The notes beneath the pieces are model-generated. The model did no database searches. It saw only the letters and a list, made by a program, of their open reading frames with translations, and was not told the DNA's origin. Below, piece after piece: positions 12,814 through 16,897 of a stretch of DNA of 24,826 bases (the first letter of the stretch is position 1; each line of letters starts with the position of its first letter). Location of the stretch: positions 1-24,826 of the forward strand of contig CAXTKV010000058.1 of assembly GCA_964244895.1 (NCBI GenBank), read 5' to 3'. The translations under genes and the position numbers were made by a program. The stretch is from an uncultured Deinococcales bacterium (lineage in GTDB: Bacteria; Deinococcota; Deinococci; Deinococcales; JAAFIG01).

Positions 12814-13242
12814 TCAGGTTTTCTTTCGACTGGATCGAAGTCGCGTTTTTTGCTTTGCCGTGTAAAACCAACCCGTTGGTGCATGCTCAAAAACGGGCGG
12901 CAACTGACCCGTGGAATGCCACTTCGCCCACCACTCGAGAAACAGTCGGCGCTTTCGGCATTCAGGCATGTGGTTGTAAAACAACCCGAGAGCGTCTTTT
13001 AAGTCCTCGCCGCGCACTATGACGAATGTATAGGTTCGCCCTCCATGCGTATAAGGGCCAAAGAGATTTCCACCAATGATTTGCCAGACGTACTTCACTG
13101 GCTCGGGATCCGTGTGCTGCATCCTGAGCTGTAAAGATGGCTGGTATTTATCGCCAGTAAACGATCCTTCACCGACGATCAGCCCGACAATGTAGCCGAT
13201 CTCGAACTGGCTCAAGGGTTGGGGGTCTGTATCTGAACTCAC
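12814..13242 (-). CDS. Single-motif LAGLIDADG homing-endonuclease-like protein, 142 aa
   Basis: FEIGYIVGLIVGEGSF matches the LAGLIDADG helix with the acidic metal ligand kept; MQHTDPEPV..IIGGNLFGPY and a K..W tail fit the fold. TAAACT -10 lies 6 nt before the GTG (leaderless geometry). Confidence 0.75.
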   Translation of the reverse strand: MSSDTDPQPLSQFEIGYIVGLIVGEGSFTGDKYQPSLQLRMQHTDPEPVKYVWQIIGGNLFGPYTHGGRTYTFVIVRGEDLKDALGLFYNHMPECRKRRLFLEWWAKWHSTGQLPPVFEHAPTGWFYTAKQKTRLRSSRKKT

Positions 13243-14247: not shown

Positions 14248-14993
14248 AAATACTAAGTGTTGTCAACCAAAAAGGTGGTGTAGGCAAAACGACGACCAGC
14301 GTGAATTTAACCGCATACCTGGCCACGACAAGGCGAAAAGTTCTCCTGATTGATCTCGACCCTCAGGGTAATGCGACGAGTGGATTTGGTATTGAGAATC
14401 CAGAAAAAGGCGTCTACGACGTATTAATGGGCAATTCAAGCCTAGAGGATGCGGTCATTGAAACGTCGCAAAAAGGAGTTTACATCCTCTGTGCAACGCC
14501 CGATCTGGCTGGAGCGAGCGTTGAATTGACCAACGAACCGAAGTGTTTAAGGAGATTGCTCGAGCAAGAGAACCCATATGATTTGATTGTCGTCGATGCT
14601 CCACCCTCACTGGGGCCACTGACGGTCAACGCACTTGTCGCAGCGGATGGATTGATCATTCCCTTACAAGCCGAGTACTACGCCCTCGAAGGCATCGCAG
14701 GTTTACTGAATACGATTGAACGCGTCAGAGAATCGCTCAATCCGAATTTGAAAACCCTCGGGATCGTTGTAACGATGTTCGACCAGCGAACCACCTTGGC
14801 GCAACAAGTCGAGCAAAATGTTCGAACGCATTTTGGAGAAACCGTGTTCTGGTCGGTGATTCCGCGCAACGTGCGCCTTTCGGAAGCTCCAAGTTACGGG
14901 AAGCCGATCAATCAATTTGCCCCGACCAGTTCGGGGGCGGCGGCCTACCGCCGTCTGGCAGAGGAGGTGTTGCAGCGTGTCAAAAAAGCCTAG
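14244..14993 (+). CDS. parA: Chromosome partition ATPase ParA/Soj
   Basis: [11 protein letters not shown] deviant Walker [41 protein letters not shown]. Confidence 0.97.
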
Positions 14994-15816
14994 TGGACTG
15001 GGACGCGGCCTGGACGCGTTGATCCCGCGCGCTCAAACTGTATCTGCCCAGAAGGTTGCGATTTTGGAGATTAAACCGAACGCAAAACAGCCGAGGCGCA
15101 ACTTTGACGAGGCTGCTCTAAACGAATTGGCAGCTTCAATCCGAGAGAAGGGTTTACTTCAGCCAATATTGGTGCGACCGCTCAAAAAAGGCTACGAAAT
15201 TGTGGCTGGTGAACGTCGCTGGCGGGCAGCCCAACTGGCCGGGCTCACCGAGGTTCCCGTCGTTGTACGCGACTTATCAGACCAAGAATCGCTCGAATTG
15301 GCGATCATCGAAAACTTGCAACGCGAGGATCTCGGGCCGCTCGAGGAAGCCCGAGCGTTCCAGCAACTGATCGACTTTGGATTGACGCAGGATGAAGCGG
15401 CGAAAACGGTTGGAAAGGGGAGAACAACCGTCACCAACGCGTTGCGCTTGCTGACCCTGTCAGACAGTGGGCTACGGGCGCTCGAGAGCGGCTCAATCAC
15501 CGCTGGACACGCGAGAGCTATTTTGGCCATGCCAAAGGATGCTCAGGATTGGGCGCTCGAACAGATCGTGTCCAAAGACTTGAGCGTCCGTCAAGCTGAG
15601 CAGCTCAGGTTCGCAGCGCAGGACGAGCAAGCAACTGAAAATGGTGCGACGATGGCGACCAAACCGCGAATACATCGGCAATTGGAGCTCGAACTGGCGC
15701 GTTATTCGGGCACGAAAGTCCGGATCATCGGGCAGGAAAAGGGGCGTTTAGAGTTGTACTACCACAGCCTCGAGGATTTGAACCGAATACTCGCACTCAT
15801 GGGCTATGACGCATGA
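14977..15816 (+). CDS. parB: Chromosome partition protein ParB/Spo0J
   Basis: GTG start ([15 protein letters not shown]) with [44 protein letters not shown]. Confidence 0.97.
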
Positions 15817-15873: not shown

Positions 15874-15902
15874 TTGCTATTACGCTCAAAACAGAATAAA
15901 CT
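15874..15902 (+). promoter_or_regulatory. Promoter TTGCTA-N17-TAAACT whose spacer is an RDRM (DdrO operator)
   Basis: Spacer 15880-15896 is TTACGCTCAAAACAGAA, matching the 17-bp Deinococcus radiation/desiccation response motif pattern TTAYGY-N5-RCRKAA. Confidence 0.75.
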
Positions 15903-15951
15903 TTGTCGAAGCTGATCTCAACCCTCTGCATCGGCAACCCAGGAGGAATTC

Positions 15952-16824
15952 ATGCCTTTCGATCCCCGCCAACACCTGATCAAGCTCAAAGGGCGCGATT
16001 ACCTGCCGGTGGCCGCACGATTGATCTGGCTGAACGAGGAATCTCACCGGTATCGCATTGAAACCCAGTTCCTCAAGCTCGAGGACACGTATGCGGTCGT
16101 ACAAGCGACCGTTTCCTTGTTGGATGATGCGGGCGTGCCGACGCGTTCGGCGACGGCCCTCAAACGCGAGGATCTGGCGCACTTTCCCGACTTCCTGGAA
16201 AAATCCGAAACTGGAGCCATCGGGCGGGCGCTCGGCATGCTCGGCTTCGGGACGCAGTTTGCACCGGAATTCGACGAGCTCGAGGGCAAAATCGAAGCGC
16301 GCGTCGTGGACTCGCCGCGCACCGTGGCAGAATCCGTCAGAGCCGTCCCAGACGCCCCTCGCTCGCCATCGAAGCCGAGCGCTCGAGACCTGGAGCCACC
16401 GCCCGAGACGCCAACCAGATCAAGCTTGAGCGCTGCCGGGTTGAAGCCTGCCAGCACGCTCGGGCCGCCGACCAACAGGCACAAACCCGTCCCGGACGAG
16501 ATTGAGCGCCCGCAGCCGACGGCGCAAGTGGTTTCCAGAGATTTGGATATCGACGATGGCCTCGAAGAGTACGACCACAGCGCTGTCGCCGATGAGGATC
16601 TCTTCAGCGAGACCAAGGTGCGCCGCCTGCTGGCCATCGGTGGGAAACTGTTTGCCCTCAAAGGCGATGCGCTCGAGGCTCGATTGCTCAAGGCGGCCTC
16701 GAAGATTCTGGGCAGGGGTGTCGAAGATCTGAATGCCTTGCACTGGAAAGATGGCAACAAGGTGATGCAGGCGCTCGAAGATCAGGCGATCAAAAACAAG
16801 GTCTGGGATGCACCGAAGAACTGA
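15952..16824 (+). CDS. Putative Rad52/Sak-like single-strand annealing protein (phage-type, not canonical DdrA)
   Basis: AGGAGG RBS. N-domain LKGRDYLPVAARLIWL...FLEKSETGAIGRALGMLGFGTQF resembles Rad52-superfamily phage annealases; followed by a Pro/Ser-rich linker, an acidic patch and a small helical C-domain. Confidence 0.7.
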   Translation: MPFDPRQHLIKLKGRDYLPVAARLIWLNEESHRYRIETQFLKLEDTYAVVQATVSLLDDAGVPTRSATALKREDLAHFPDFLEKSETGAIGRALGMLGFGTQFAPEFDELEGKIEARVVDSPRTVAESVRAVPDAPRSPSKPSARDLEPPPETPTRSSLSAAGLKPASTLGPPTNRHKPVPDEIERPQPTAQVVSRDLDIDDGLEEYDHSAVADEDLFSETKVRRLLAIGGKLFALKGDALEARLLKAASKILGRGVEDLNALHWKDGNKVMQALEDQAIKNKVWDAPKN

Positions 16825-16834
16825 CCCGATTAAA

Positions 16835-16897
16835 GGAACACTGTCCAGGACGCAAAAATCCTGAAACTCGAGAACACCGTCTTGGACGGTGTTCTTT
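16835..16897. repeat. REP-like repeats / bidirectional terminator
   Basis: GGAACACTGTCCAGGACG, then AGAACACCGTC-TTG-GACGGTGTTCT-TT, between convergent genes. Confidence 0.8.

Follow-up and report, generated by a model that had tools for sequence, protein, structure and literature searches.

A predicted Rad52/Sak-like protein of probable phage origin behind a putative DdrO operator in an uncultured Deinococcales family

We examined a 24,826-nucleotide stretch of DNA from an uncultured Deinococcales bacterium (contig CAXTKV010000058.1 of assembly GCA_964244895.1, referred to in full as the window), in which a 290-amino-acid (aa) protein is encoded behind a putative promoter whose spacer is filled by a candidate radiation/desiccation response motif (RDRM), the predicted operator of the repressor DdrO. 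The window is contig C58 of a 5.12-Mb genome that is 91% complete (G000). A first-pass annotation, made from the letters alone, had proposed that the gene is a domesticated phage recombinase under DdrO control. The elements on which it built (the TTGCTA and TAAACT hexamers, the 17-mer between them, the ribosome binding site and the gene) are all in place (Table 1), and none of the testable observations that it had named beforehand as speaking against its proposal (a genome lacking ddrO, a protein lacking a Rad52-like fold, or plain DdrA orthology) was made. Comparisons were with 18 relatives of the same family, all of them draft genomes; the 15 orthologue loci come from metagenome-assembled genomes (MAGs) of kin, and counts across them are not independent.

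Table 1. Features at and around the gene for the 290-aa protein (positions in the window).
Feature	Position	Strand	Remarks
parB	14917..15816	+	upstream neighbour; Pfam ParB_N/HTH_ParB; linked in 8/15 orthologue loci; dispensable to the arrangement
Putative -35 hexamer, TTGCTA	15874..15879	+	4/6 to consensus; inferred from sequence
RDRM, predicted DdrO operator, TTACGCTCAAAACAGAA	15880..15896	.	fills the 17-bp promoter spacer
Putative -10 hexamer, TAAACT	15897..15902	+	TATAAT/TATACT at the same place in 10/15 orthologues
Shine-Dalgarno sequence, AGGAGG	15941..15946	+	5 nt before the ATG
Coding sequence, 290 aa	15952 (ATG)..16824 (TGA)	+	directly after parB
N-domain, residues 1-105	15952..16266	+	beta-hairpin, helix, three strands, helix; predicted Rad52/Sak fold; PF27148 (Slr1353_N)
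Pro-rich disordered linker, about residues 106-203	16267..16560	+	pLDDT 45-64; orthologue lengths vary; 15 Pro in residues 124-205
C-domain, about residues 204-290	16561..16824	+	predicted three-helix bundle, like the lambda Red-beta C-terminal domain
12-pair hairpin, likely terminator	16870..16896	.	-18.2 kcal/mol, z -3.6; between the 290-aa gene and a ccdA-like gene

The pattern TTMYG-N7-CRKAA, which we take to be the RDRM consensus, occurs twice in the window (0.33 expected) and 65 times in the genome (45 expected; other spacings give 33-55), and a bare match would on its own be weak evidence for an operator. Because this enrichment is mild, we instead built a scoring matrix from 12 sites of the same genome that precede recognisable repair genes; these were picked from the pattern matches, with the candidate excluded. 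The candidate scored 25.5 bits and ranked fifth among the 133 sites above 11 bits in the 5.12 Mb, which bears out the reading of the 17-mer as an RDRM. Of the 15 positions of the published consensus it agrees with 13, read on its reverse strand, and a comparison by eye with the validated ddrD site of Deinococcus radiodurans shows differences at 3 of 20 positions.

Fourteen of the 15 orthologue loci carry an RDRM of 22.2-27.2 bits located 11-116 bases before the start codon, and the remaining locus has a 13.6-bit site 229 bases upstream; no site of at least 20 bits occurs in the other 107,453 bases of these loci. In the window the -35/-10 pair matches consensus at only 8 of 12 positions and is unlisted by a promoter scan. 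In ten of the orthologue loci, however, a TATAAT or TATACT hexamer directly abuts the RDRM on its downstream side, and in the other five a TATGAT or TATAAT hexamer ends one base before it. The gene is linked to parB in eight loci, as the first-pass annotation had described for the window, while the seven loci without parB keep the operator, so that the position after parB appears incidental. In six of those seven, a TATAAT hexamer after the RDRM is followed 5-6 bases on by the ATG, which suggests a leaderless mRNA. We consider it very likely that DdrO controls the 290-aa gene. The sole promoter-like site listed by the promoter scan (15893-15921, minus strand, 9/12 to consensus) crosses the RDRM backwards toward parB, and is possibly an antisense promoter or a chance match.

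Both regulators are encoded in the same genome, a point that the first-pass annotation had marked for checking. DdrO (E 2.6e-66 to the solved DdrO structure) keeps the helix-turn-helix region and the IELRGKRP loop that contains the L106/R107 cut site, and IrrE (E 1.7e-63) keeps its HEXXH motif as HEITH; ddrO was found in 17 of the 18 relatives. On contig C77, ddrA, a small gene (possibly ddrQ), ddrO and irrE are clustered, with ddrA having no RDRM directly upstream; it may be co-transcribed. The cluster spans G000:C77:649-4040 (loci L001 and L004) and has two RDRMs between its divergent units.

The sites of the matrix precede ruvB, cinA-ligT-recA, uvrC, a recQ-family gene and pcrA/uvrD. Sites outside the training set that the matrix recovered precede polA (rank 23), ssb (29), dnaE (38) and recG (72), and RDRMs also stand before ddrO and before gyrA, gyrB and uvrB (these three genes recognised by eye only). 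As predicted from these sites, the regulon of the radiation/desiccation response (RDR) is intact in this uncultured family outside Deinococcus. A further RDRM at G000:C139:1275 lies between an SRAP gene and a divergent Y-family polymerase-like gene. Strong sites (20-29 bits) at C126:6795, C208:1820, C2:29007, C37:22645, C289:3055, C270:4443 and C168:7777 of the same genome precede genes of unknown function, which are candidate regulon members; they comprise a DUF6745 operon and genes for two paralogous proteins of 146-153 aa, for a CXXC zinc-ribbon protein that may correspond to ddrS, and for an ankyrin protein.

An AlphaFold model of the 290-aa protein (from 146 sequences; mean predicted local distance difference test score, pLDDT, 81.8) contains two confident domains joined by a disordered linker, and the linker and helical C-domain agree with what had been anticipated from the translation. 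The N-domain comprises strands (E) and helices (H) in the order E10-12, E15-17, H20-30, E34-43, E47-57, E63-74 and H81-99. The residues K15, Y17, R23, K71, K84 and R92 are conserved. The Rad52/Sak fold of single-strand annealing proteins (SSAPs) is described in PMC11783212 as a beta-hairpin, a three-stranded sheet and a bridging helix, and the predicted model shows these elements; RAD52, Sak and Mgm101 are its top structural matches. In a structure search of 48,161 chains the top seven matches were all SSAP domains, and the top six Foldseek matches were Mgm101, RAD52 and Sak. We therefore hold with high confidence that the N-domain, as modelled, adopts the Rad52/Sak fold, as the first-pass annotation had suggested. 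The Sak protein of phage 80a aligns to residues 3-284 with a root-mean-square deviation (rmsd) of 16, a value that reflects the linker.

The predicted C-domain superposes over 66 of 67 residues (2.0 A) on that of lambda Red-beta, for which solved complexes with lambda exonuclease and with the SSB tail exist. Red-beta differs from the 290-aa protein in that the Red-beta/RecT N-domain is absent among the 50 matches listed, and no partner exonuclease gene adjoins the 290-aa gene. Searches with the C-domain gave only leads under 0.9 in the Atlas and found nothing among annotated phages, and a search among proteins of 30-80 aa returned only short N-domain matches.

Sequence-level links are weaker. 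A precomputed Pfam 38 call assigns the protein to PF27148 (Slr1353_N, dsRBD-like, where dsRBD denotes the double-stranded RNA-binding domain), and our local Pfam copy gave no such call; at the sequence level, PDB, Pfam, NCBIfam and PADLOC otherwise yielded nothing informative. The protein matches PHROGs 27776, 11717 and 23738, all of unknown function. Most of its language-model neighbours in the Atlas (0.92-0.95) are viral; SSAP_Sak clusters occur among them, as does one cluster with both Pfam labels. A profile comparison to Sak3 was colinear and weak (E about 0.02; score 19 versus a shuffled mean of 12-13 and a shuffled maximum of 26 or 16, depending on the run), that to DdrA was not significant, and deeper profiles strengthened neither link. 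None of the 146 family members matched PF06378 (Sak3/SSAP_Sak) at E 0.05 among the 25 families listed, and the best hidden Markov model (HMM) cross-comparison gave E 0.12.

The gene is present in 16 of the 18 relatives, across all five genera of the family, and was found in none of the 282 genomes sampled from the rest of the order; that sample probably includes G255 as one negative entry, on which no other statement here depends. The same genome carries a true ddrA elsewhere (80 bits), and the 290-aa gene is therefore not DdrA; BLASTP between the two proteins gave E 0.44. The 290-aa protein has no match to PF04098 (Rad52_Rad22) and no similarity to DdrB (PF12747), so the difference from DdrA and DdrB noted in the first-pass annotation holds, and plain DdrA orthology is excluded. 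A protein query found ddrA in 15 of the 18 relatives. Among the 16 that carry the 290-aa gene, 13 have ddrA and eight have ddrB. We did not find ddrB in G000 (91% complete) or in any of six genomes of genus g4. The 290-aa gene adds to DdrA and DdrB and is not a replacement for either. Replacement of DdrA had been considered from a PF04098 search that gave 0 of 18, which proved to be a failure of sensitivity; replacement of DdrB as a general rule was rejected with ddrB in 9 of 19 family genomes, eight of which carry the gene too.

DdrA (DR0423) and the 290-aa protein have in common a Rad52-superfamily domain, a chromosomal location and an upstream RDRM, but they belong to different families (PF04098 versus PF27148) without significant sequence or profile similarity. 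DdrB is likewise an RDRM-controlled protein of single-stranded DNA (ssDNA), and has annealing activity. Its ssDNA binding is described in PMC8533742.

Relatives of the protein are mainly viral. On viral contigs, 321 of 385 candidate stretches encode them, and at E 0.001 or better the family has 7,553 representatives. We retained 80 viral loci and scanned the neighbours in seven, which include replication initiators, resolvases, DnaB helicase and a Mu-Gam-like gene. Synechocystis Slr1353 and gp48 of the Thermus phage P23-45 share the N-domain family (PF27148). The latter is 42% identical over 120 residues and is encoded two genes before DnaB; one P23-45 record carries the annotators' label 'ssDNA binding protein'. 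Phage SSAPs of the Sak and Sak3 type (80a Sak; lactococcal p2 Sak3, PF06378) differ in that the 290-aa gene is chromosomal and under predicted control of a host repressor.

One phage locus, L099, is the sole one of the 80 that contains the C-domain, and encodes a full-length homologue together with a CI-like repressor, an initiator and a loader ATPase. It carries the C-domain in two genes, the second of which (L099:5046-5594; C-domain E 3.7e-10) lacks the annealing domain. The hexamer CTCGAG occurs there at 73 per 10 kb, compared with at most 8.3 in the other 79 viral loci, and the best match of its repressor among 121 genomes is a family member; no RDRM was found in the 8.7 kb examined. By these sequence features L099 is a temperate phage of this Deinococcales family. 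No other hexamer is as common as CTCGAG in the genome of the window: it has 21,883 copies in 5.12 Mb, where hexamers of identical composition have a median of 1,537. It reaches 50-69 per 10 kb in loci of six relatives (L035-L048), compared with about 1-2 in unrelated loci. It looks like a highly iterated palindrome, of which the cyanobacterial HIP1 is an example; one literature search listed nothing on this excess.

In the relative G010 the C-domain occurs on two contigs, next to genes that by eye look like replication initiators. In a quick tree the chromosomal copies join L099 (Shimodaira-Hasegawa-like approximate likelihood ratio test, SH-aLRT, 96); in a careful tree the genera hold together and the chromosomal copies fall in two groups among unplaced copies, 27 of the 45 entries being of unassigned context. 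The family is mainly viral, fixed in one host lineage and found there in a non-phage context, and capture from a phage is the simplest reading of these sequences. The domestication proposed at the outset is supported as regards phage origin; transfer would presumably have run from phage to host. Another relative has a second copy of the gene in a mobile-looking region (L322, G009:C42), with ssb-like, helicase and UvrD-like open reading frames (ORFs) recognised by eye; an RDRM-like site of 15 bits stands 4 bases ahead of that copy's start. One sequence labelled Pleurocapsa sp. SU_196_0 (P0089, NJK44316.1) falls inside the Deinococcales clade; the label of this MAG possibly reflects mislabelling or contamination.

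The surroundings of the gene in the window are housekeeping by Pfam, in keeping with the earlier remark that no phage genes flank it. Upstream lie dnaA, rsmG, parA and parB, and downstream a convergent CcdA/DsbD-type gene and thioredoxin genes. The hairpin after the gene is absent from the terminator scan's listing. A 142-aa ORF between dnaA and rsmG (12814-13242, minus strand), with a similar ORF in L046, has no match in Pfam or NCBIfam; its first motif resembles LAGLIDADG.

We believe that the best explanation, and a probable one, is that the gene encodes a chromosomal, vertically inherited Rad52-superfamily SSAP (PF27148, with Sak-like architecture) that came from a temperate phage of the family and was wired into the IrrE/DdrO response. 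The predicted operator, its position between the putative -35 and -10 hexamers and the repressor gene are all observed, and DdrO dimers bound there would block transcription. DNA damage would activate IrrE, which would cut DdrO at L106/R107; both genes and the loop are present, and the mechanism is one established in Deinococcus (PMC6868357). The induced protein, with its predicted fold, would oligomerise through the N-domain, perhaps into a ring such as those of RAD52, Sak and Mgm101, and bind ssDNA. The Red-beta-like C-domain, matched at the level of fold, might dock on the SSB tail or on a resecting nuclease, and the docked protein would then pair complementary, SSB-coated ends of the broken chromosome without RecA, alongside DdrA and, where present, DdrB. 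Annealing is, on balance, the probable main activity.

A DdrO-induced Rad52-fold protein could instead shield ssDNA ends as DdrA does, or pass them to RecA or a nuclease through its C-domain, and not anneal them: DdrA, which shares its fold and regulon, protects 3' ends, and no annealing by it was detected (PMC515370); phage homologues adjoin a Mu-Gam-like end-protection gene, and the best match of the C-domain is the exonuclease-bound form of the Red-beta domain. The retention of DdrA alongside the protein in 13 of 16 relatives argues for a separate job, however, and the full two-domain layout, over which 80a Sak aligns, is kept; we regard end protection as unlikely. Readings other than annealing or end protection are, even taken together, slightly less likely still. 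Among them, the RDRM might be non-working and an SSAP or ssDNA binder expressed by read-through from rsmG-parAB, with a replication or segregation role near the origin. The gene lies 135 bp downstream of parB in the same orientation and stays linked to it in eight loci, no significant hairpin separates the two (z 0.07), and many RDRM-like sites are unbound in D. radiodurans. This RDRM is nevertheless among the best of its genome and follows the gene to two other neighbourhoods with the -10 box kept adjacent, which makes read-through improbable.

Induced by damage, the protein might also act in phage conflict, as a dominant-negative decoy against phage SSAPs, or help resident prophages to recombine. 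Close homologues in a phage of this family and in the family's mobile-looking loci would fit such a role, and solved Sak complexes (8qe9) show that SSAPs are targeted in such conflicts; but the protein has no match in a defence library, its conserved residues are intact, and the gene is single-copy and kept across all five genera, so that we think this role quite improbable. Finally, the Pfam description might point to a dsRBD-like RNA-binding protein unrelated to SSAPs in function. SSAPs rank higher in the structure search and are matched over 98-100 residues including the hairpin, as against 53-81 for the chains of dsRBD and S5. The second domain, taken by itself, matches the C-domain of an SSAP, and the phage context is one of DNA replication; an RNA-binding function is very improbable.

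Homologues in other phyla offer a parallel. In the 130 bases upstream of the homologue, 6 of 26 Armatimonadota-type loci (0.43 expected) and 3 of 4 Chloroflexia loci (0.05 expected) contain a LexA-type box (RAAC-N4-RTTY), an enrichment inflated by choice of the pattern after these sequences had been viewed; it was found in none of 6 Bacillota, 8 Acidobacteriota and 3 Thermomicrobiales loci. Two Armatimonadota genomes have the box in front of lexA, ruvB, a Y-family polymerase and a Rad50-like gene as well; in one of them, a divergent uvrA and the homologue have two boxes in common. These boxes suggest repeated recruitment to damage control; over the whole of the two genomes, though, the pattern has only 12 and 13 matches, versus 11 and 7 for its control, and the literature searched held no published LexA binding motif for Armatimonadetes. 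Five further homologue loci have a GTATAC palindrome of ambiguous ownership, and Pyrinomonadaceae homologues are among the distant matches. A one-mismatch GTATAC-N4-GTATAC also precedes a small sigma-70 region-4 protein in three Armatimonadota-type genomes (L264, L271, L272) and recG in a fourth case (L267). It is possible, though we hold it only tentatively, that PF27148 is a widespread, unrecognised family of phage SSAPs captured independently several times, each time under the host's damage repressor: DdrO here, LexA-type boxes in Armatimonadota and Chloroflexia, and a separate, putative palindrome in Pyrinomonadaceae.

The literature searched, mostly without subscription papers, held no functional study of Slr1353, gp48 or PF27148 (slr1353 is mentioned in passing only), and the RDR regulon tables consulted name no such family. 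We found no published description of the family, which the supplementary candidate lists of PMC11783212, outside our coverage, may include. A phage origin has been suggested for DdrA too (PMC515370), and what is new here is DdrA-like logic with a different SSAP family. The best-studied radiation and desiccation regulon gains a candidate repair protein, and a large anonymous phage family, which includes gp48 of the laboratory phage P23-45, gains a testable function; PF27148-type SSAPs are also candidate recombineering tools for Deinococcota. The biochemical role of DdrA itself is unsettled (PMC515370 detected no annealing), and a second predicted Rad52-fold protein, with a domain of SSB-docking type and under the same repressor, would allow a direct comparison. 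If the wider proposal is true, bacteria would repeatedly have supplemented their damage responses with a captured phage recombinase that anneals DNA independently of RecA, and in this lineage a single switch would govern up to three ssDNA proteins (DdrA, DdrB and the 290-aa protein).
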